Assembly (NCBI GenBank): GCA_043809245.1 | Contig: JAZDDZ010000047.1 | Location: 32,001 to 96,000 of the forward strand | From: Candidatus Iainarchaeum sp. | GTDB taxonomy: Archaea > Iainarchaeota > Iainarchaeia > Iainarchaeales > JAZDDZ01 | Direction: 5' to 3' | Length of the DNA: 64,000 nucleotides | Shown: positions 1 through 30,404 of the stretch, piece after piece | Layout: each line of letters starts with the position of its first letter | Position numbering within the stretch: the stretch's first letter is position 1 | Notes under the pieces: generated by a model | What the model was told of the DNA's origin: nothing | Seen by the model: only the letters and a program-made list of their open reading frames with translations | Database searches by the model: none | Program-made: the position numbers and the translations under genes

Positions 1-125
1 GAATCAGGGGAAAATATTTGGATAATTTGTTAAAGCGCAAGGGAAAAGGATTTGAATTGCTTGACCCCTCGCTTGAAAGAAAAAACAATTTCAACAAAAA
101 ATGGCTTTTGGATGTAAACTGGTGA
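1..125 (+). CDS. Partial (3' end) AbiEi-like type IV TA antitoxin
   Basis: Frame starting at 3 reads ...FELLDPSLERKNNFNKKWLLDVNW*, resembling the LLDP...KW.L.VN C-terminus of AbiEi antitoxins; directly upstream of an AbiEii gene. Confidence 0.6.
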   Translation, partial: IRGKYLDNLLKRKGKGFELLDPSLERKNNFNKKWLLDVNW

Positions 126-130
126 ATGAA

Positions 131-883
131 ATGATTTCAAGGGAAGAACTGGAAAAGGTTAGTGCGGCAAGGAAGACAAGCCTTTACTTCGAGGAAAAAG
201 AATACCTGCAATACGTTTTCCTTCACTCGGTTTCAAGGTTTGCCGAATCATTTGCATTCAAGGGCGGCACTTGCTTAAGAATATGCCATGGCTTTGAAAG
301 GGCTTCAGAGGACCTTGATTTCAGCTCTTCACTAAGCATTCAAAAAACGAGGAAAATCTTCGAGAGATGCCTTAAGGACTTCGCACTGCTCAACATAGAG
401 CAGGAGGTTTTTTCAGAAAAAGAGTTTGAAGGAAACATAAGGTTTGAAGCGCGCTTCAAAGGCCCCCTGTTCAGCGGAAACCGCCACTCAACGAATTCGC
501 TTAAAATTGATTTCAACAAAGGCAAATCAAGGAATACTGTTGCGAAAGCAATTCCCAAGCTGTTCTCTGACATCCCTGTTTTCACAATCCAGGCATTAGC
601 CGAAAAAGAAATCCTCGCGGAAAAAATTCGCACCTTAATCAACAGGGGGCAGGCACGCGACCTATACGACGTCTGGATGCTGCTGCAAAACAAAACACCC
701 ATTGACACAAAGCTCCTTGAAGCAAAACTAAAAGAAGAAAACAGCAGCATATCCAAGCTAAAAATGCCCGAAAAACAGGCATACGAAAGAGACCTAAAGC
801 CCCTTCTGAATTTTCTGCCCCCCTACAAGCAAGTCAAAGAAGAAGCGGAAAAAGAACTCAAAAAAATCAGGCCACTGCATTAA
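131..883 (+). CDS. AbiEii-family nucleotidyltransferase toxin
   Basis: FKGGTCLR..HG..R.SEDLDF, EILAEKIR and RDLYD motifs; ATG at 131 preferred over 101. Confidence 0.85.
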   Translation: MISREELEKVSAARKTSLYFEEKEYLQYVFLHSVSRFAESFAFKGGTCLRICHGFERASEDLDFSSSLSIQKTRKIFERCLKDFALLNIEQEVFSEKEFEGNIRFEARFKGPLFSGNRHSTNSLKIDFNKGKSRNTVAKAIPKLFSDIPVFTIQALAEKEILAEKIRTLINRGQARDLYDVWMLLQNKTPIDTKLLEAKLKEENSSISKLKMPEKQAYERDLKPLLNFLPPYKQVKEEAEKELKKIRPLH

Positions 884-892
884 ACCGAAAAG

Positions 893-936
893 AACGGAGC
901 GCGGAATTGCCCCGCGCAGGAAGGGGTTATGTAGAA
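893..936 (+). repeat. 44-bp site copy 1 (AACGGAGCG...GGTTATGTAGAA)
   Basis: Both ends and length conserved with copies at 2042, 3477 and 3553. Confidence 0.85.
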
Positions 937-952
937 GACAGTTGCATTTCTT

Positions 953-1384
953 TTAACCCTTTTTTACGATTTTTTTCACCGCTTCAAGGAATCCAGTGGC
1001 AATTTTTATAGCTGAATCCGCTTCGGATTCCTGCGCTTCCGCGTTTTTACCCAAGCCGTACATGAAGTCGTGCCTTTGAAGCCTTAACGAGTTAAGTTCG
1101 TTGAGATACTTTCGCTCTATTTTATCCGAATATTTTTCTTTCAGGTAAACGTAGACCGCAAAATGGCTTCTTTCCTTGAACCCGTCCCTAAATAAAAGCG
1201 CCCTAGCCGAATGGAACATGGAAGTGTAGGCGTTTACAATCGCGTCCTCGAATATTTCGTGCTCCAATTCTTTTTCAGCCAAATCAAGCTTGTGCTCTGC
1301 CATTTCAATGGATGACAAGGATTTTTCCTTGTCGGGCTTTTCCCTTACAAGCAAGCCTTCCCTGACGCATTCCTCTACATTCAT
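953..1384 (-). CDS. HEPN domain protein (HEPN-MNT toxin)
   Basis: AY.SMFHSARALL, SH..V, R...DFMY pattern; coupled to an MNT gene. Confidence 0.85.
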   Translation of the reverse strand: MNVEECVREGLLVREKPDKEKSLSSIEMAEHKLDLAEKELEHEIFEDAIVNAYTSMFHSARALLFRDGFKERSHFAVYVYLKEKYSDKIERKYLNELNSLRLQRHDFMYGLGKNAEAQESEADSAIKIATGFLEAVKKIVKKG

Positions 1385-1929
1385 AGTATCACGGGCCTTT
1401 CGCCGAGCAAAACAATTGAATCGTAAATAACCTTTTCATAAAACACCCTGTCTTCGGACGCCTTTTTCTTCCAATCGCCTAAAGACAGCACTGAAACATT
1501 CGCTTCCCTTCCGAGCCTGGAGAGGAAGCCGAAATCAATCTTTGCAGGCTTGTGCGCTATAACCAGCAAGTCAACATCGCTTTTCCCGTCATTCGTTCCC
1601 TTTGCAAGGCTGCCGTACAAAATTATTGCATGAATGTCCTTCAGCCTTTTTTTAATTTCCCCCACAACCCTTGCCTCTGCAAGCAGGTCAAGGTTGAATA
1701 AAACTTTCCACTGCCTGCACAAAGCGCTTTCAAGGTTCGCCTTAACCTGGTGGGTTCTGCCAATCTCCTCAAACGAAACAATTCCCTTCCGCTTCATGAA
1801 TTCCAGTGCATCCCCTGCAGAGCCTGCACTCAAACCCGACTCCAATGCAAGCCCCCTGACGGAAAACGCCTTGTTCGGCCTGGAAAGCACGAATTCAATC
1901 GCTTTAACCAAAGCATACTGTTCAAGCAT
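1381..1929 (-). CDS. wHTH + minimal nucleotidyltransferase (MNT) antitoxin
   Basis: LYGSLAKG...SDVDLLV motif with N-terminal HTH. Confidence 0.85.
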   Translation of the reverse strand: MLEQYALVKAIEFVLSRPNKAFSVRGLALESGLSAGSAGDALEFMKRKGIVSFEEIGRTHQVKANLESALCRQWKVLFNLDLLAEARVVGEIKKRLKDIHAIILYGSLAKGTNDGKSDVDLLVIAHKPAKIDFGFLSRLGREANVSVLSLGDWKKKASEDRVFYEKVIYDSIVLLGERPVIL

Positions 1930-2002
1930 AACAAATAATAAAAAAGACAAATGTATTTTTAAATAGAACATACTCGGGTATAAATCAATATAAAATACAT
2001 AT

Positions 2003-2018
2003 GTTCATTTAAATGAAC
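2003..2018. promoter_or_regulatory. Palindromic operator candidate GTTCATTTAAATGAAC over TATA-like box upstream of MNT-HEPN
   Basis: Perfect 16-bp palindrome seen in sequence. Confidence 0.45.
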
Positions 2019-2041
2019 GTAAACCAGTAAGCCAATTCTTT

Positions 2042-2085
2042 TTCTACATAACCGCTTCCCCTTTTTCCCTTTCCCGCGCTCCGTT
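2042..2085 (-). repeat. 44-bp site copy 2 (inverted)
   Basis: Reverse complement reads AACGGAGCGCGGGAAAGGGAAAAAGGGGAAGCGGTTATGTAGAA. Confidence 0.85.
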
Positions 2086-2168
2086 GAGGCGTTTGCCGCA
2101 AGTAGGTTTAAATATGTATATGCCTATGTATATATCTATTCATATAGATATCTTTGAGGTGTACTGTT

Positions 2169-2774
2169 ATGGTTAACCTTTCCTCTCCGAAAACTTTTTC
2201 CTTTGTTGAATTCATCTTGGAAAAGAAATCGTTCACGCAGTACTCCGCTGTGAAAGAATTGAAGCTTTCCATGCCTTTGGTGAACCAGGTCACGAATTTT
2301 CTTTTGGACAAGGGTTTTTTGTCGCATGACGGCAAAAAATATGTTTTGCGTGACGCTGCTGGGCTTGTTTCCGCGGTGCATTTGTTTCGGGACATGAGGA
2401 AAGCACTGCTTGTTGAGGTTTCCACGAGCCTTGGAAAAGAGGAGGTTGTAAAGCTATTGCCCTCTGCTGCAATTTTTTGCCTTGACAGCGCTTTGGCGCA
2501 TTACTCTAACTGGTGGCGCTCAAACAAGGCATGCGCTTACGTTACCGAAAAAGAGGCATTAGGCATTCAAAAAAAACTGTTTTACAAGAAAGGGGGCAAA
2601 ACAATTGTGCGATTGTTTTTAGAGCAGCCTTTGGTTAAAGACAAGGTGAAATTTCAAGGCAGGCAATTCACTTCAAAAATCAGGACAGTCATTGACATGG
2701 TGTGCGACAACCAAATGAATGCAGTTGAGCCTCTTTTTTCAGAGCTTTGGGGTGAAAGAATTGGAAGGCATTGA
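2169..2774 (+). CDS. wHTH protein, putative antitoxin partner of a nucleotidyltransferase (paralog of 13390-13992)
   Basis: FTQ...KEL..S..LVN.V wHTH; shares CLDSAL..YS...RSN and RT.ID.VCDN with 13390. Confidence 0.65.
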   Translation: MVNLSSPKTFSFVEFILEKKSFTQYSAVKELKLSMPLVNQVTNFLLDKGFLSHDGKKYVLRDAAGLVSAVHLFRDMRKALLVEVSTSLGKEEVVKLLPSAAIFCLDSALAHYSNWWRSNKACAYVTEKEALGIQKKLFYKKGGKTIVRLFLEQPLVKDKVKFQGRQFTSKIRTVIDMVCDNQMNAVEPLFSELWGERIGRH

Positions 2775-3447
2775 ATCAATTTACAATAAGGATGCAACTG
2801 AACTCTCCTTGTCCGAGTTAAAGCGTTTTCTTTCGTGGTGTGAATACACGCTGCATTATGCGCCAGTAATAATCGGCGGCTGGGCTGTTTACGCTTTCAC
2901 TCCAAAAATCGGCTCAATCGACATTGACATTGTATTGAAAAAGAAGGACTTCAAAAAACTTGCGGTTTTTTTCTCTGAAAACGGTTATGCGAAAAAAGAG
3001 GATGAACCGAACATTTACTTCAAGGAAGCCATGCTGCCTTCAGGCAAAACCGAAACAATGCGTTTCGACTTGATTGCATTGGAATCAAAGTATGCAATCA
3101 GCAGGGAGCCGAACGTAAGCATTCCCATAAGGCTTGTGGAAAAACATTCAAAAGAAATTTCCTTCGAAAGACAGAAAATAATTGTGCCGGAAAAAGAATT
3201 GCTGTTAATCCAGAAAGTTGCCGCATATAGGAATCGCGAGGACCTGGCCAGAACAGGGCATTTAAGGCTGGCTTTCGGCCAAAGGGAATGGAATGAAAGA
3301 AAAATAGCCAAAGACAAGGAAGACATTAAAAACCTCATAGAATCAGGCATTGACTTTGAAAAACTGGAAAAACTGCTTGAAAAAACCGGGTTCAAAAAAA
3401 TATACGAAGATGCATTAAAAGAAATCGACGCATTCAGGCAAAAATAA
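2752..3447 (+). CDS. Polbeta-superfamily nucleotidyltransferase (AbiEii-like)
   Basis: IIGGWAV...GS.DIDIV, LL..K..AY..R, KD.EDI motifs; GTG start at 2752 inferred. Confidence 0.75.
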   Translation: MKELEGIESIYNKDATELSLSELKRFLSWCEYTLHYAPVIIGGWAVYAFTPKIGSIDIDIVLKKKDFKKLAVFFSENGYAKKEDEPNIYFKEAMLPSGKTETMRFDLIALESKYAISREPNVSIPIRLVEKHSKEISFERQKIIVPEKELLLIQKVAAYRNREDLARTGHLRLAFGQREWNERKIAKDKEDIKNLIESGIDFEKLEKLLEKTGFKKIYEDALKEIDAFRQK

Positions 3448-3476
3448 AAAGGGAAGGATTACACCCCTGCATAAAT

Positions 3477-3519
3477 AACGGGGCGTCGAACCGCCCGCAG
3501 CGGAATTGGTTATGTAGAA
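3477..3519 (+). repeat. 43-bp site copy 3 (contains CCGCAGCGG)
   Basis: AACGGGGCG...CCGCAGCGGAATTGGTTATGTAGAA. Confidence 0.8.
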
Positions 3520-3552
3520 GGCTGCACTGAAAACCGCTTCCAATTTCCTTCT

Positions 3553-3596
3553 TTCTACATAACCGCCTCCTCTTTTTCCCTTTCCCTCGCTCCGTT
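3553..3596 (-). repeat. 44-bp site copy 4 (inverted; near-identical to copy 2)
   Basis: Reverse complement reads AACGGAGCGAGGGAAAGGGAAAAAGAGGAGGCGGTTATGTAGAA. Confidence 0.85.
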
Positions 3597-3609
3597 AGTT
3601 TCCCGGTTC

Positions 3610-4815
3610 TCAAATTTCTTGGCTTATGTAAAAGATTGGCCTGAATTTTATGTTGTTTTTTTCGGCATTCAATTTTTCCGACAGAATGAGTGCTTTTTTT
3701 GGCTTGTATTTTTCCGTGAAGCTTTGGAATGATTTTGATGCGATTGGCTTGTTTAGGCTGGATTTGATTTCAATTGGGATTATTTTTCCGTTTTTTTCCA
3801 GGACAAAGTCCACTTCGGCTTTTGATTTGGCACGCCAGTATTTCAGCTCGAATTGCTTTTTCACCAATTCTGTTGCCGCAAAGTTTTCGTATAATGCCCC
3901 TTTGTCGGCCCTGTCCTTGGCTGGCTGAAAGTTTTTAATGACCGCGTTCCTGAAGCCGTTGTCGTAAAAAAAGATTTTCGGTGCCTTTACCAGCTCTGTC
4001 CTTTTGTTTGAATAGAACGGCTGGCTTCTCTGGCAGATAAATGTTTTTTCAAGTATGTTCAGGTTTTTCAGCAAATCCTTGTAGTTCAAGGAAGTAATGC
4101 CTGACAACTCGTTATAGTTCAGAATGCCGCCTGTCTGCAGTGCGAGCGCGTGAATCAGTTTGCTGAGCTTGAAGTCCTCTGGAATGTTTAGGATTTCCTT
4201 TATTTCCTTGAGAAAATATGTGTTGTAAATGTTGCGCAAAACAAGCTCTTTTTCCTCCGAATTTTTGCTTAAAACCACCCTTGGATAGCCGCCGTACACG
4301 CAGAATTCATTAAAAAGCGGGATGATTTTCCCAATGACCGGTTCGCTCAGCCTCCCCTTAACGTAAATTTTCCCGAATAATTCGGGTTCCCTGAAGTTCA
4401 AAAATTCCTCGAAAGAGAATGGATATAGGTTAAATACAAGGATTCTGCCTACAAGATACTTTATGCCGTGAATGGACAACCCGCTTGCCGAAGAGCCCGA
4501 AACAAGGATTTTGGTTTCATGGTTATCGTAAATGAATTTCAGGTTTTTCCCGCCTTCCTTGGAGTACTGAAACTCGTCAATGAACAAATACTTGTAGGGC
4601 TTGACGTGCAGTTCAACAAACGACTTAATATCCCCGTTGAATAACTCTAAAGTCTCCCTGTCCTCGAAATCCAGGAAATGCGCTTCCTTTAATCCCGCAA
4701 AAATATGCTTTAACAGCGTGGTTTTGCCGCTCTGCCTCGGGCCAGTAACCGCAATTATCTCCCGCTTGCCCAGATAACGAAAAATCTCCCCCTCCAAAAA
4801 TCTATCTATATACAT
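3610..4815 (-). CDS. AAA_14 ATPase with DUF4143 and C-terminal PD-(D/E)xK-like domain
   Basis: GPRQSGKTT Walker A, FIDEFQ, GGYP, PKIFFYDNG, EVDFV...PIEIK. Confidence 0.9.
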   Translation of the reverse strand: MYIDRFLEGEIFRYLGKREIIAVTGPRQSGKTTLLKHIFAGLKEAHFLDFEDRETLELFNGDIKSFVELHVKPYKYLFIDEFQYSKEGGKNLKFIYDNHETKILVSGSSASGLSIHGIKYLVGRILVFNLYPFSFEEFLNFREPELFGKIYVKGRLSEPVIGKIIPLFNEFCVYGGYPRVVLSKNSEEKELVLRNIYNTYFLKEIKEILNIPEDFKLSKLIHALALQTGGILNYNELSGITSLNYKDLLKNLNILEKTFICQRSQPFYSNKRTELVKAPKIFFYDNGFRNAVIKNFQPAKDRADKGALYENFAATELVKKQFELKYWRAKSKAEVDFVLEKNGKIIPIEIKSSLNKPIASKSFQSFTEKYKPKKALILSEKLNAEKNNIKFRPIFYISQEI

Positions 4816-5022
4816 TTTATCCCTGCTAAAATTTACACAATATAAATAATAGCAGGCATATATTTAAAGCTTTCTGCGCTTGTTTTCCTTGCTTTTTTTG
4901 CCTTTCAGCCGCTTTCTCCCCCCTTGCCTCTTGTTTTTCCGCGATTTTTTTCCAAGAAAGGTTTTTATATTAGGTCATCCTTTATCTATTACTTTAATTG
5001 ATTTGTTTTAAGGTGTTGTTTT

Positions 5023-5778
5023 TTGGTTGAAAAGGTTAAGACTGGCATTCAGGGCTTGGATAAGGCTTTGGAGGGCGGAATCCCCAAGCGAAACATTGTC
5101 TTGGTTTCCGGCGGAGCCGGAACAGGTAAAAGCACTTTATCCATGCAATACCTGGTTAATGGCGCGAAACTGTTCGGGGATCGAGGCCTTTACATCTCCA
5201 CTGAGCAGCGCCGAGAAGAATTGATTAAAGCGGGCATGAATTTTGGCTGGAACATTGAGGAATTAGAGCAAAAAAACCTGCTTAAGATAAAGTTTTTTGA
5301 CGTGGTCGGCGGCGACAACTGGCTGCAGAAGATTTACGACCTCTATACTGCATTCCAACCCAAACGCATTGTAGTTGACTCTTTAACGACTTTCACTGAC
5401 GCCATGCTTGTCGCTGGAATGGGCGAAGACACTGCGTTCTCCATGGTGCAAGTAGCTGAAACCGTTTCACCTGTGCCACGCACCGAGAAGATTATAGCGA
5501 AAACAACGCTGTACCATTTGATGAATAAGCTGAGATTGTTTGATTCAACTGTTATACTTACATCGGAGCTGGACGAGGGAACACAAAGTCTAAGTGCAGA
5601 TGGCGTAAGCGAGTTTATTGCGGATGGAGTAATAATATTACATTATTTGGGCGTAGGCGCGGTCGACTTTAGAAGCCTGCTCGTAAGAAAGATGAGATAT
5701 ACCAACCACAACAAGCAAACTTTGCTATACGATATTTCGCAGAAAGGAATAGAAATTAAAGAAGAACAAAATGTATAA
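5023..5778 (+). CDS. KaiC/RecA-superfamily ATPase (single domain)
   Basis: TGIQGLD..L.GGIP, GGAGTGKS, IVVDS, EFIADGVI, VRKMR. Confidence 0.9.
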   Translation: MVEKVKTGIQGLDKALEGGIPKRNIVLVSGGAGTGKSTLSMQYLVNGAKLFGDRGLYISTEQRREELIKAGMNFGWNIEELEQKNLLKIKFFDVVGGDNWLQKIYDLYTAFQPKRIVVDSLTTFTDAMLVAGMGEDTAFSMVQVAETVSPVPRTEKIIAKTTLYHLMNKLRLFDSTVILTSELDEGTQSLSADGVSEFIADGVIILHYLGVGAVDFRSLLVRKMRYTNHNKQTLLYDISQKGIEIKEEQNV

Positions 5779-5783
5779 CATTT

Positions 5784-6461
5784 ATGCTTAAACACATTTT
5801 AGTTATTCCTGATGGCAATAGACGATACGCAAAAGAACGTAACTGTTCACTTCAGGAAATATACGACTATGCAATAATAGAACTTACAACCAAACTATTA
5901 AAATTTTTCCTAATTGAGAAAAACATCCCAGAAGTTACTATCTACGGTATTTCTTTAAACAATATCCTAAAAAGAAAAGCCGAAGAACTTGAACCAATTT
6001 TTAAGCCACAGATAAAAGCCTATAAAAAATGGTTAACTGATAATGATTTTAAGAATGCCCAAGTCGCATTTAGGTTTTTTGGGGAGATTGAAAAACTTCC
6101 TAAAAATTACAAAAAAATTATTAAAGAATTGGAAGCCGCAGCCCCAAAAAAACCAAAAAAAATGTGCAATCTTTTGGTTGGCTATGACGCAGAAGCAGAG
6201 ATAGTTAATGCTATAAATTGTGCACAAAAAAATAAAGGCAGAATATCCCAAGAAAAATTGCGTGATTTCTTACAACTAAAAACGCCAATTGATGTTGTTT
6301 TTCGCTCAGGTTATGAAAAGAGACTATCGGGAGCACCTTTAATTCAATCTAGCCAAGCAGAGCTGATATTTGCTGACTACTATTACCCCGAATTAAATAA
6401 AAAAAGAATGGAAGGAATAATAGAAGAATACAATAATAGAAAAAGGAGGCATGGCCAATGA
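5784..6461 (+). CDS. cis-prenyltransferase (UppS-like), divergent
   Basis: HILVIPDGNRRYA, DVVFRSGYEKRLSG, AELIF motifs. Confidence 0.85.
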   Translation: MLKHILVIPDGNRRYAKERNCSLQEIYDYAIIELTTKLLKFFLIEKNIPEVTIYGISLNNILKRKAEELEPIFKPQIKAYKKWLTDNDFKNAQVAFRFFGEIEKLPKNYKKIIKELEAAAPKKPKKMCNLLVGYDAEAEIVNAINCAQKNKGRISQEKLRDFLQLKTPIDVVFRSGYEKRLSGAPLIQSSQAELIFADYYYPELNKKRMEGIIEEYNNRKRRHGQ

Positions 6462-13992: not shown

Positions 13993-14329
13993 AACTTTTG
14001 GCTATGGCTTAGAGGCAACGCAGAAATCATTCAAGGAACTGGAGGGCTTAGCCGCATGGCTGAACATCCACGGCCATTCGCCTATAGTCATAGGCGGCTG
14101 GGCAACTTTTTTTTATGTGAAGGGAATGGGAAGCAGGGACATTGACTTGATTCTTCCGAAAACCGCTCTGCCTGCAATTCAAAAACAGCAATTGAACGCA
14201 AAGATTTGGAAAGACGAGCAGGACATCAAGGCGCTTCTTGCATTGCCGTTGGATCAGGAAAAGCTTGAAGAATTGCTTAAAAAAACAGGGTTCAAGGAAG
14301 AATATGAAAACGCGGCAAGCCAACTCTAA
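13973..14329 (+). pseudogene. Nucleotidyltransferase paralog of 2752-3447 with large in-frame internal deletion
   Basis: IGGWA...SRDIDL is joined almost directly to KI.KD..DIK.L...LE.LL.KTGFK; roughly 110 central residues missing. Confidence 0.65.
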
Positions 14330-29424: not shown

Positions 29425-29967
29425 TTACCTGCTAAGGTCAATGGCTCTGTCCACAAACATCACGGATTCCTGTATCGCTGTTTGTTTTTCCTTTGAGGCA
29501 AGGGCATAAAACAGCCCGTGCTTGTTTTTTTCCTTTACTTTCGCGGCAAGCCCTGAGAAGAATTTCAATACTTCCTGTTCGTTGTTGTAAATCAGCAGGT
29601 TTGTGAAAGAGTCAAGGACAACAAAATCGTAATTTTCATCCAATAGCTTTGAAAGGAATATCATTACCTGTGTCATTCCGTTTCTTGAGTCCAGGAAATG
29701 GCAGTTTTCAATTTTATCCGCAGGCGGATTGGAAATGGATTTGGTAATGCCGTCAATGAAGAGGAACTTGCTGTAATCAACTTTTTTCCTGTCGAATATC
29801 TCTTTGAGTGACGAAAAGGTTTTGTTGAGTGATATGTAGATTACCCCTTTGCCTGAGAGCTGGCGTGCAAAATCAACCACCATTTCATTGTACTCCATTG
29901 GGGGAAGTATAATGAGAATTGTCTTGTAATCGTCTAGTTCTGCTTTTAGTTCCATGTCAGCCACCAA
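29425..29967 (-). CDS. Inactive KaiC/RecA-fold (DUF835-like) signalling protein
   Basis: IYISLNK, FIDGIT, VVLDS.TNLLIYN; no Walker A. Confidence 0.6.
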   Translation of the reverse strand: MVADMELKAELDDYKTILIILPPMEYNEMVVDFARQLSGKGVIYISLNKTFSSLKEIFDRKKVDYSKFLFIDGITKSISNPPADKIENCHFLDSRNGMTQVMIFLSKLLDENYDFVVLDSFTNLLIYNNEQEVLKFFSGLAAKVKEKNKHGLFYALASKEKQTAIQESVMFVDRAIDLSR

Positions 29968-30313
29968 CGATTTTCCTGACTCTTTTAACCAAGTCGTTTA
30001 TGTCAAATGGCTTTTGAATGAAGTCCACCACGTTTTTTTGCTTTAAGAGGTCGGCTTTCTCGGCTTCGCTTGCCCTTACAACGCTCAGGAAAGCAATCTT
30101 TATGTTCTGGACTTTTTCAACGACTTTTTTTACCGGCATCCCGGGCATCATTATGTCCAAGAGAATCAGGTCAATTTTTCCCGTTCCCATTTTTCCAATG
30201 AAGTCATCGCCGTTTATCGCTGTAAGCACTTTGTAGCCGTTCTTTGACAGCACGGTTTTGACTGTTTCCCTTACATCCTCTTCGTCATCCACAACCATTA
30301 TTGTTTTAGCCAT
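29957..30313 (-). CDS. Stand-alone response regulator receiver
   Basis: VVDDE, LLDIMMPGM, KPF. Confidence 0.95.
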   Translation of the reverse strand: MAKTIMVVDDEEDVRETVKTVLSKNGYKVLTAINGDDFIGKMGTGKIDLILLDIMMPGMPVKKVVEKVQNIKIAFLSVVRASEAEKADLLKQKNVVDFIQKPFDINDLVKRVRKIVGG

Positions 30314-30404
30314 TTTACCCCTCTGAAAAAAATTAAACTTTTAGATATGGTATGGAAGAATTGTTTATAAACACTATCAAAACCAGTTAGTTAAGTGAAA
30401 AGGA

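Follow-up and report, generated by a model that had tools for sequence, protein, structure and literature searches.

Bipartite Elements Between the Modules of an Archaeal Toxin–Antitoxin Island Carry a Motif That Elsewhere in the Clade Is Oriented Toward the XerA dif Site

Genes of the Island

The analysed stretch of DNA (the window) comprises 64 kb of the 1.48-Mb genome of Candidatus Iainarchaeum sp., designated here G000, the contigs of which have no established order. An AbiEii-family nucleotidyltransferase toxin gene lies at 101–883 on the plus strand (Pfam PF08843, E 1.1e-30), and the ORFs indicate that its AbiEi-like partner begins upstream of the window. On the minus strand follow a HEPN-domain gene (953–1384; PF05168, E 1.2e-15) and, paired with it, a minimal nucleotidyltransferase (MNT) gene (1381–1971; PF01909/PF18765, with a weak NCBIfam MntA match), the product of which has an N-terminal extension and an NTP_transf_2/Polbeta domain. 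The plus strand then encodes a 206-aa protein without a Pfam or NCBIfam match (2154–2774), and its gene overlaps the next one, a nucleotidyltransferase-like gene (2719–3447; NTP_transf_5, Pfam E 6.5e-5, below the curated cut-off), by 56 nt. A winged-helix label had been given to the 206-aa protein in the preliminary description of this DNA, and no search confirmed it. Of 196 genomes from the order, 32 contained a homologue of the NTP_transf_5-like gene. The last gene, at 3610–4815 on the minus strand, encodes an ATPase with AAA_14 and DUF4143 domains (PF13173 and PF13635).

The island sits upstream of a kaiC-like/uppS block. The syntenic locus of archaeon GW2011_AR10 (AR10) contains neither the toxin–antitoxin island nor a copy of the motif described below. 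As judged from this sequence comparison, the island is a lineage-specific insertion of toxin–antitoxin and defence modules.

Position and Architecture of the Four Sites

The pattern AACGGRGCG-N18-28-GGTTATGTAGAA matched exactly four times in the window and in none of 100 dinucleotide-preserving shuffles. This confirmed the four 43–44-bp sites with conserved ends and alternating orientation (+, −, +, −) reported earlier. All of them are full bipartite copies, in which approximately 20 variable bases separate a left arm AACGGAGCGCGG from a right arm GGTTATGTAGAA, and this 12-mer right arm occurs four times without mismatch in the window. Site 1 is located at 893–936 (plus strand, 44 bp; 40.1 bits with model R1), site 2 at 2042–2085 (minus strand, 44 bp; 46.1 bits), site 3 at 3477–3519 (plus strand, 43 bp; 33.1 bits), and site 4 at 3553–3596 (minus strand, 44 bp; 41.7 bits). 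The coordinates and the Pfam gene calls bear out that the sites stand exactly between the gene modules, with stop codons 10, 17, 30, and 14 nt away from them. Two divergent promoter-like A+T-rich stretches enclose site 2. A search using the sequence model with the filters off revealed no further copies in the remaining window sequence or in the preceding 20 kb.

The two arms of a site are about 20 bp apart and do not form an inverted repeat. The middles, described earlier as variable, are indeed less conserved than the ends, but they are non-random and fall into two classes, being G+C-rich with short hairpin potential in sites 1 and 3 and purine-rich in sites 2 and 4. Sites 2 and 4 are near-duplicates with 89% identity over 57 bp, and the match between them extends 10–13 bp past the right arm. 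The left arms face each other at sites 2/3, while the right arms face each other at sites 3/4 across a 33-bp spacer (3520–3552).

The Right-Arm Motif in Other Genomes

The right arm belongs to a motif, RTTATGTAKAA (core TTATGTAKA), that is found throughout a clade including AR10. The motif occurs about ten times as often as the reversed pattern used as a control. The counts in individual genomes are 13 versus 2 in G000, 28 versus 4 in AR10, 29 versus 5 in genome G001, and 19 versus 3 in genome G070. It is enriched in many families and also in two families of the sister order (f34 and f35), and is present at about 13–40 copies per genome. A model built from eight copies detected seven strong copies in G000, namely the four in the window, two on contig C23 (C23:67791 and C23:68257), and one inside yggS on contig C36 (C36:2429), as well as copies in five other genomes among the 151 searched. 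The left arm also accompanies dif-proximal copies of the motif in G000, AR10, G077, and G025, and the full bipartite copies outside the island are mostly dif-proximal.

Motif copies are often intergenic elsewhere, as are all four in the island. Many of them lie 1–30 nt past stop codons, while others lie upstream of genes. The preliminary description had taken occurrence at ordinary gene ends as evidence against its own proposal of recombination cassettes, and such copies were found after the EF-1beta gene and between polB and a methionine-aminopeptidase-like gene, together with copies inside yggS and other coding genes.

In public collections, the strict two-arm pattern matched 8 genome and 9 metagenome loci. 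AR10 was the only true relative among these, the other loci looking like chance matches by their G+C content and coding context. One viral contig matched the element weakly (E 0.08). No Rfam family matches the elements, and a literature search of limited reach turned up no account of a motif of this kind.

Polarity of the Motif and Its Switch at dif

The dif sites were called as an 11-6-11 palindrome with ATAA-N6-TTAT and were identified as dif by this structure, which is as printed for the dif site of T. kodakarensis in PMC11840125. The palindrome is single-copy in 44 of 196 genomes (at most 3 mismatches), and the arms of the clade's dif read TTATMCNGCAY. The distance from dif to xerA is 5–14 kb in G000, AR10, and G025. 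We also built a dif profile, trained on 23 of the order's dif sites, which score 26.6–40.8 with it. The dif site of G000 (C23:67676–67703) is a candidate only, with a profile score of at most 12.

Along a contig, RTTATGTAKAA keeps a single strand orientation, which changes at dif, the XerA site at which linked chromosomes are resolved. In the complete genome of AR10, 21 minus-strand copies span 187482–963873, dif is located at 964001–964028, and seven plus-strand copies run from 964218 round to 55718; all 28 copies thus fall into two strand runs (P ~2e-7). The same rule is followed by 50 of 50 copies on eight further dif-bearing contigs and by 12 of 14 on contig C8 of G111. Around the 24 palindromic dif loci, the motif forms a converging inverted pair, with copies on both sides at 20 loci, on one side at 3, and on neither at 1, while none of seven non-palindromic chance dif matches is flanked by it. 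Within 400 bp of the dif loci, 57 motif matches are correctly oriented and one is wrongly oriented. The inverted pair brackets dif at 23–210 bp, and the density of the motif rises near dif.

The A/T skew of AR10 also flips at dif, but the gene-strand bias does not. A second polarity switch of AR10 lies at 55.7–187.5 kb, away from cdc6 (840.6 kb); the A/T-skew switch (268–310 kb) is not at exactly the same place either. The earlier suggestion that the right arm is Xer-related holds insofar as the motif flanks the 28-bp dif site and flips there, but the arm does not represent a Xer core. It should also be mentioned that the polarity rule seen elsewhere is broken in the island, where four full copies alternate in orientation over 2.7 kb. 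A position of the island at the origin-side polarity switch was rejected, as the uppS homologue of AR10 is located at 476.8 kb, inside one replichore.

The Proposed Site-Specific Recombination

We consider it probable that the sites are full copies of a bipartite putative protein-binding element, that their right arm is the chromosome-polarity motif of the clade, and that the island copies are not recombination sites. The preliminary description had instead proposed a cassette array shuffled by site-specific recombination. In such a model, the sites would serve XerA or any of the five remaining tyrosine recombinases of G000, and modules bounded by alternately inverted sites would be moved or inverted as cassettes, as has been proposed for the pdif modules of Acinetobacter plasmids. 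We regard this model as unlikely. The alternation of the sites and their placement at the module borders agree with it, as do the "empty" pair formed by sites 3 and 4, the 33-bp spacer of which resembles both ends of the MNT–HEPN segment, the six tyrosine recombinase genes in a genome of this size, and the connection of the element to the XerA/dif locus. The gene content near dif also varies, the span between the same conserved flanking genes being about 4 kb in G000 and 18 kb in AR10. The best-scoring recombinase is XerA (NF040815, 266 bits), encoded on a contig other than that of the island; the integron model gave 225.9 against a cut-off of 265.

However, the 11-6-11 dif core is missing from every module border, the best profile score in the window positions 1–6000 being −1.0. 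The sites do not fit a tyrosine-recombinase crossover site because of the ~20-bp spacing of their arms, which are not inverted repeats. G000 contains no second copy of any module and no target duplications at the sites, and none of the homologous nucleotidyltransferase modules at 11 loci of relatives has such sites. Only one sequencing run contained a small share (0.06) of the sequence words, and its short contigs at 80% likeness show a related strain, approximately 85–90% identical, in which the junctions AbiEii|HEPN and MNT|site 2|next promoter are unchanged. One contig of this strain joins 876 to 960, across the position of site 1, which may be deleted or replaced there. The replichore polarity, the in-gene copies, and the copies next to housekeeping genes are likewise unexpected of a cassette site. 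Cassette shuffling is therefore not supported for the island sites by the sequence data, and we infer that the modules are not shuffled on them as att or dif core sites.

Several further candidates were examined and rejected. The copy on contig C36 is in frame within an intact yggS-like gene, and one AR10 copy resembles it, so that yggS was considered as an att source; as AR10's own yggS differs at this position and coding genes contain further copies, we read the C36 copy as an in-gene copy of the motif. Transposon terminal repeats were dismissed, since target duplications are absent and the ends of the IS200-like multi-copy element are unrelated. No serine recombinase was found. The palindromic TTATGTAG-N7-CTACAT, considered as a real recombination core, occurs only at C23:68257 and C23:60532 and is absent from the window sites.

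Mobile Element Remnants and RNA-Level Functions as Improbable Alternatives

The island could also be the remnant of an integrated plasmid or of another Xer-exploiting element with its own multimer-resolution locus, the core of which was lost or replaced by the module of the 206-aa protein and the nucleotidyltransferase. Mobile DNA typically carries toxin–antitoxin, AbiE, and DUF4143 ATPase genes, and the absence of the island from the syntenic AR10 locus would fit such an origin. The geometry of sites 2 and 3 is also that of the chromosomal dif pairs of AR10 (963873 minus, dif, 964184 plus), G077, and contig C23 of G000. Nevertheless, we find this origin quite improbable: neither a dif-like core nor a convincing half-site is left, the island contains no replication or integrase gene, and it does not stand out in G+C content. 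The profile, with a negative score, also spoke against relics of dif half-sites next to sites 2 and 3, which were rejected. The words TTGCCG and CCTGCAT beside the left arms are weak, with an estimated joint chance of ~0.01.

An action in RNA or transcription, as REP-like repeats or gene-end terminators whose polarity is a by-product of gene orientation, is very improbable: many copies do follow stop codons, the commoner arrangement giving a transcript that reads TTCTACATAAC and then a T-rich stretch, and sites 3/4, which lie between convergent genes, are able to form a single long hairpin (3470–3603, −39.2 kcal/mol, z −4.2), but single sites fold no better than shuffles (z −0.2 to −1.3), Rfam gives no match, copies also lie within coding genes and upstream of genes, the motif flips fully at dif where gene-strand bias does not, copies number 13–40 per genome and not hundreds, and the only Y1 transposases are those of the IS200-like element with its unrelated ends.

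A Possible Reader of the Element and Its Meaning

The element as a putative protein-binding sequence is best read by analogy with bacterial KOPS or Ter sites, as part of what may be a dif-associated, polarity-reading system. A factor would read the asymmetric element by its orientation and act together with XerA/dif. One possibility is a motor that tracks along DNA and is guided to dif, in the way that KOPS guide FtsK; another is a polar barrier protein comparable to Tus or RTP at Ter sites. Searches of five genomes for each family gave only P-loop-level matches below the cut-off for FtsK/SpoIIIE (PF01580) and nothing over the cut-off for RTP (PF02334).

A candidate reader would be the conserved 157-aa winged-helix protein encoded beside dif, which belongs to no Pfam or NCBIfam family. 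Among its fold matches, RTP ranked 38th (E 0.058), amid generic winged-helix proteins. The gene was found in 98 of 121 genomes, including families without enrichment of the motif, and had no match in G022 and G006, both of which are motif-enriched; an obligatory partnership of this gene with the motif was accordingly rejected. We propose only tentatively that RTTATGTAKAA, which near dif is part of the 44-bp bipartite element, is recognised by a hitherto undescribed polarity-reading machine of archaea, either a translocase or SMC-type motor steered to dif or a polar barrier to forks or motors, possibly based on the dif-linked winged-helix protein.

The island copies may have come with separately inserted modules or, as sites 2 and 4 are near-duplicates, may have been duplicated locally. 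Either route would account for the mixed orientations, although we offer this account as conjecture. The island may also be linked to Xer/dif biology, since full bipartite copies are otherwise mostly dif-proximal.

To our knowledge, archaea lack FtsK, and the motif bears on how XerA and two dif copies meet in archaea without it and on whether replication termination is defined there. The archaeal precedent reported in PMC2958812 consists only of weakly skewed 4-mers in Thermococcales. The conserved 11-mer with its essentially complete replichore polarity and its fixed inverted pair around dif provides a testable sequence. If a polarity-reading machine does act on it, Archaea would have their first equivalent of KOPS or Ter, and the facing pairs of the island could be two-way barriers or insulators around toxin–antitoxin modules, or marks of modules that entered via the dif region. 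The motif can be used in practice for orienting contigs and locating dif in the genomes of this uncultured clade. The analysis also advises caution: alternating repeats around toxin–antitoxin genes should not be taken for recombination cassettes before the other locations of the repeat have been checked.

Comparison with Known Systems

The pdif modules of Acinetobacter plasmids comprise toxin–antitoxin and other modules between alternately oriented, complete 28-bp XerC/XerD sites. The sites of the island alternate around modules in the same way (+, −, +, −), but the island has no 28-bp Xer site, and the same module was not found in different contexts. Like the attC sites of integrons, the elements have conserved ends and a variable middle; attC arrays, however, have one orientation, complementary ends, and an adjacent integron integrase, none of which holds here. 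REP/BIME sequences are also short intergenic elements just past genes that sometimes form inverted pairs (REP doublets), whereas the present motif has 13 copies in G000, no stable hairpin in single sites, and no RAYT.

The XDS of B. subtilis are XerD-binding half-sites in the terminus region that unload SMC, as cited in PMC11840125. The motif resembles them, as described there, in that dif-related short sites with a role other than recombination are scattered around the terminus. In contrast to XDS, it has only TTAT in common with the dif arms of the clade, and its binding by XerA is therefore doubtful.

The SRS of B. subtilis are polar words likewise oriented by replichore. Over-represented polarised words that converge on dif have been described as KOPS (FtsK-orienting polar sequences) in E. 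coli and ASPS in Thermococcales (PMC2958812). RTTATGTAKAA shares with these three classes an asymmetric, over-represented word whose orientation follows the replichore, switches strand at dif with convergence on it, and whose density increases near dif, but no FtsK/SpoIIIE translocase was detected over the cut-off in the five genomes. The present motif is also longer (an 8–9-nt core in a conserved 11-mer) and much rarer (~13–40 per genome). Around dif, within ~200 bp, it stands as a fixed inverted pair, and some lineages extend it with a second arm at a distance of 21 nt. The ASPS, according to PMC2958812, are 4-mers with partial skew.

As in the Ter/Tus system of E. coli and its Ter/RTP counterpart in B. 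subtilis, long asymmetric putative protein-binding sites form two opposed groups around the terminus. The copies here differ from Ter sites in being spread over the whole replichore, and no RTP match exceeded the cut-off in the five genomes. In B. subtilis, the innermost Ter sites are bipartite and form a closely spaced inverted pair adjoining the gene of the binding protein; similarly, the inverted bipartite pair described here brackets dif and adjoins the conserved winged-helix gene.

Full Copies of the Element in the Island and Elsewhere

The four bipartite sites of 43–44 bp (left arm, middle of ~20 nt, right arm) proposed in the preliminary description were borne out by a two-arm pattern search. 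Exactly four matches were found in the 64-kb window (C47:32001–96000 of a 1.48 Mb genome in 55 contigs), namely site 1 (893–936, plus strand), site 2 (2042–2085, minus), site 3 (3477–3519, plus), and site 4 (3553–3596, minus), and none of 100 shuffles matched. The 12-mer GGTTATGTAGAA occurs four times in the window without mismatches, and the conserved part of the left arm is the 12-nt AACGGAGCGCGG. Two classes of middles can be distinguished, and sites 2 and 4 share 89% identity over 57 bp. Stop codons lie 10–30 nt from the sites, and on each side of site 2 there is an A+T-rich stretch resembling a promoter, the two being divergent.

Most of the gene labels proposed for this toxin–antitoxin island were confirmed by Pfam (AbiEii, HEPN, minimal nucleotidyltransferase, and AAA_14 with DUF4143). 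The match of an NTP_transf_5-like protein was below the threshold, and the 206-aa protein labeled as wHTH matched no family. Two short fragments at about 14003–14326 resemble the island nucleotidyltransferase (E about 1e-7) and are probably a decayed paralogue of it. Two 563-bp direct repeats, 77% identical, are located 2.4–3 kb upstream of the window start (C47:28988–29550 and 29831–30393) in a stretch without convincing genes.

A sequence model built from eight copies of the full element detected no further ones in the window or the adjoining 20 kb upstream. Three full copies lie on other contigs of the same genome, at C23:67791–67834 (plus), C23:68257–68300 (plus), and C36:2429–2473 (minus), the last of which lies in frame within an intact yggS-like gene and reads NGAREMGKRLPCYVE. 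At E <= 0.001, the model matched 6 of 151 genomes of the order, this genome included. The others are archaeon GW2011_AR10 (AR10), G149, G077 with an inverted pair of copies, G008 with a copy located 2 nt past the EF-1beta gene and ahead of a rad50-like gene, and G013, whose match lies within a coding frame and may be due to chance. The rad50/SMC-like gene that follows the copy in G008 (G008:C6, locus L046, 6305–9952) carries an apparent intein-like insert directly after the P-loop. The strict pattern, searched against public genome and metagenome collections, retrieved AR10 as the sole true relative. The order is Iainarchaeales, and the homologous proteins carry the label "Candidatus Diapherotrites".

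Over-Representation and Strand Polarity of the Right-Arm Motif

The right arm, RTTATGTAKAA, defines a family of elements that has a strand polarity and is associated with dif, the 28-bp XerA site; sites 1–4 are full versions of this clade-wide element. Compared with the reversed control, the motif was found 13 versus 2 times in the genome of the window, 28 versus 4 in AR10, 29 versus 5 in G001, and 19 versus 3 in G070. It was also enriched in many other families, as well as in f34 and f35 of a sister order, and no enrichment was seen in families f3, f30, f25, and f5 or genus g38.

AR10 is a closed genome, in which the 21 copies on the minus strand all fall within 187482–963873 and the seven on the plus strand all lie from 964218 across the record start to 55718, a pattern with a chance probability of about 2e-7. 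As the minus run ends at 963873 and the plus run begins at 964218, we conclude that there is one switch exactly at dif. The same polarity rule is kept by 50 of 50 copies on eight dif-bearing contigs (minus and plus copies, respectively: G001:C2, 9 and 6; G070:C11, 5 and 4; G104:C33, 5 and 2; G117:C18, 4 and 1; G026:C20, 2 and 3; G068:C77, 2 and 1; G023:C1, 1 and 1; C23 of the window's genome, 3 and 1) and by 12 of 14 copies on G111:C8. The same strand switch is also present on G062:C1 (6|6) and G032:C9 (5|5). A core of 8–9 nt, TTATGTAK(A), retains the polarity in the samples from AR10, which are biased by some loci having been picked for containing the motif.

Samples of 20 kb from AR10 show a flip of the A/T skew at dif and another near 268–310 kb. 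The gene-strand bias does not flip; therefore, the motif polarity is not explained by gene orientation. Intergenic copies adjoin ordinary genes, among them polB, a methionine-aminopeptidase-like gene, and ftsZ, and some copies lie within coding genes. It should be noted that two polarity-breaking copies (G111:C8:16859 and G104:C48:12641) precede the same conserved PRC-barrel gene by about 60 nt in both genomes, which suggests a second, local role for these copies.

The dif Site and Its Flanking Pair

The xerA gene is located at C23:61335–62549 (NCBIfam XerA equivalog, 266 bits), in a block xerA–HAD–nadE–membrane protein syntenic with AR10. In AR10, a perfect candidate dif (964001–964028; an 11-6-11 palindrome with ATAA-N6-TTAT) lies between an inverted pair of sites, and its architecture is the same as that of the T. 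kodakarensis dif as presented in the text of PMC11840125. A pattern derived from the AR10 and G025 sites, with up to three mismatches allowed, matched 44 of the 196 genomes of the order, mostly once per genome. The canonical order-wide form is WTGCNGKATAA-N6-TTATMCNGCAY (e.g., AR10 964001–964028 and G117:C18:20362–20389), in some cases with a central TGTATA.

The 31 fetched dif loci were sorted independently, those with at most three mismatches between the arms being taken as palindromic, and the motif was counted within 400 bp at up to two mismatches. It flanked 20 of the 24 palindromic loci on both sides, three on one side, and one on neither, and it was found at none of the seven non-palindromic chance loci. 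Its orientation around dif was correct in 57 matches and wrong in one.

In the genome of the window, a diverged candidate (C23:67676–67703) lies between a minus copy at 67466 and a plus copy at 67791. Its assignment as dif is tentative because no position of this genome exceeded a score of 12 in the dif profile. Between the inverted copies of G077 there is also a diverged palindrome. A perfect 11-7-11 palindrome with the motif core in both orientations was seen at C23:60532–60560, about 800 bp from xerA, and G077 has a motif-like word at the syntenic place.

Origin of the Island

The preliminary description read the island as a pdif-like cassette array shuffled by site-specific recombination. 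The proposed link to Xer held, as a polarity motif converging on dif, but the cassette part was not supported. Short-range alternation of copies was found only in the island and in a small cluster beside dif in G111. The dif profile revealed no dif-like core in the island, and the genome holds no second copies of its modules. Homologues of the island nucleotidyltransferase occur in 32 of 196 genomes, and no element sites were present at the 11 homologous loci fetched. Two junctions were kept in a related strain (roughly 85–90% identity), seen only in short contigs from one sequencing run: AbiEii still adjoins HEPN, and the order of the MNT gene, site 2, and the following promoter is preserved. 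Around site 1, this strain shows either a loss or a replacement of the sequence.

Island and motif are both missing from the syntenic kaiC-like/uppS locus of AR10; therefore, the island was inserted, together with its sites, in the lineage of the window's genome. As a working account, the alternating orientation would have arisen by separate insertions and local duplication. A second toxin–antitoxin cluster with paralogues of MNT, HEPN, and AbrB-nucleotidyltransferase (C49:13296–15943) carries no copy of the element. The main repeat breaking this assembly is an IS200-like element of roughly 760 bp that carries a Y1 transposase. It was seen at C23:37323–38089 and at no fewer than 11 contig ends, and the hairpins at its own ends bear no relation to the sites.

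Candidate Reader and Comparison with Known Systems

We infer that the element may be an asymmetric site bound in one orientation by a factor acting with XerA/dif, which could either steer a DNA motor, as KOPS does, or form a polar barrier, as Ter does. In the five genomes covered for each family, no homologues of FtsK/SpoIIIE or RTP were found over the cut-off. A candidate reader is a single-copy protein of 157 aa, from a family with lengths of 155–160 aa, present in 98 of the 121 genomes that make up the class sample. Its gene is located at C23:68818–69291, outside the window, and at AR10 955874–956338, and it lies 1–11 kb from dif whenever a single contig carries the two. The fold was predicted (pLDDT 93) as a winged helix plus a long helix at the C-terminus. 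The protein belongs to no Pfam or NCBIfam family, its matches by fold, at E about 0.01, are of a generic kind and include RTP at rank 38, and it had no match in two motif-enriched genomes.

The more interesting outcome is a clade-wide motif whose polarity converges on dif. In the literature searched, including PMC2958812, PMC3646895, and PMC11840125, only ASPS, short words of Thermococcales (PMC2958812), came up for comparison, with nothing for this clade; any dif logos in the figures and supplements of these papers may bear on the comparison. The element fails a tested defining feature of each of the pdif site, the attC site, and the REP element. The bacterial KOPS/SRS and Ter sites are closest to it in their manner of working, but the protein components set it outside each of these families.
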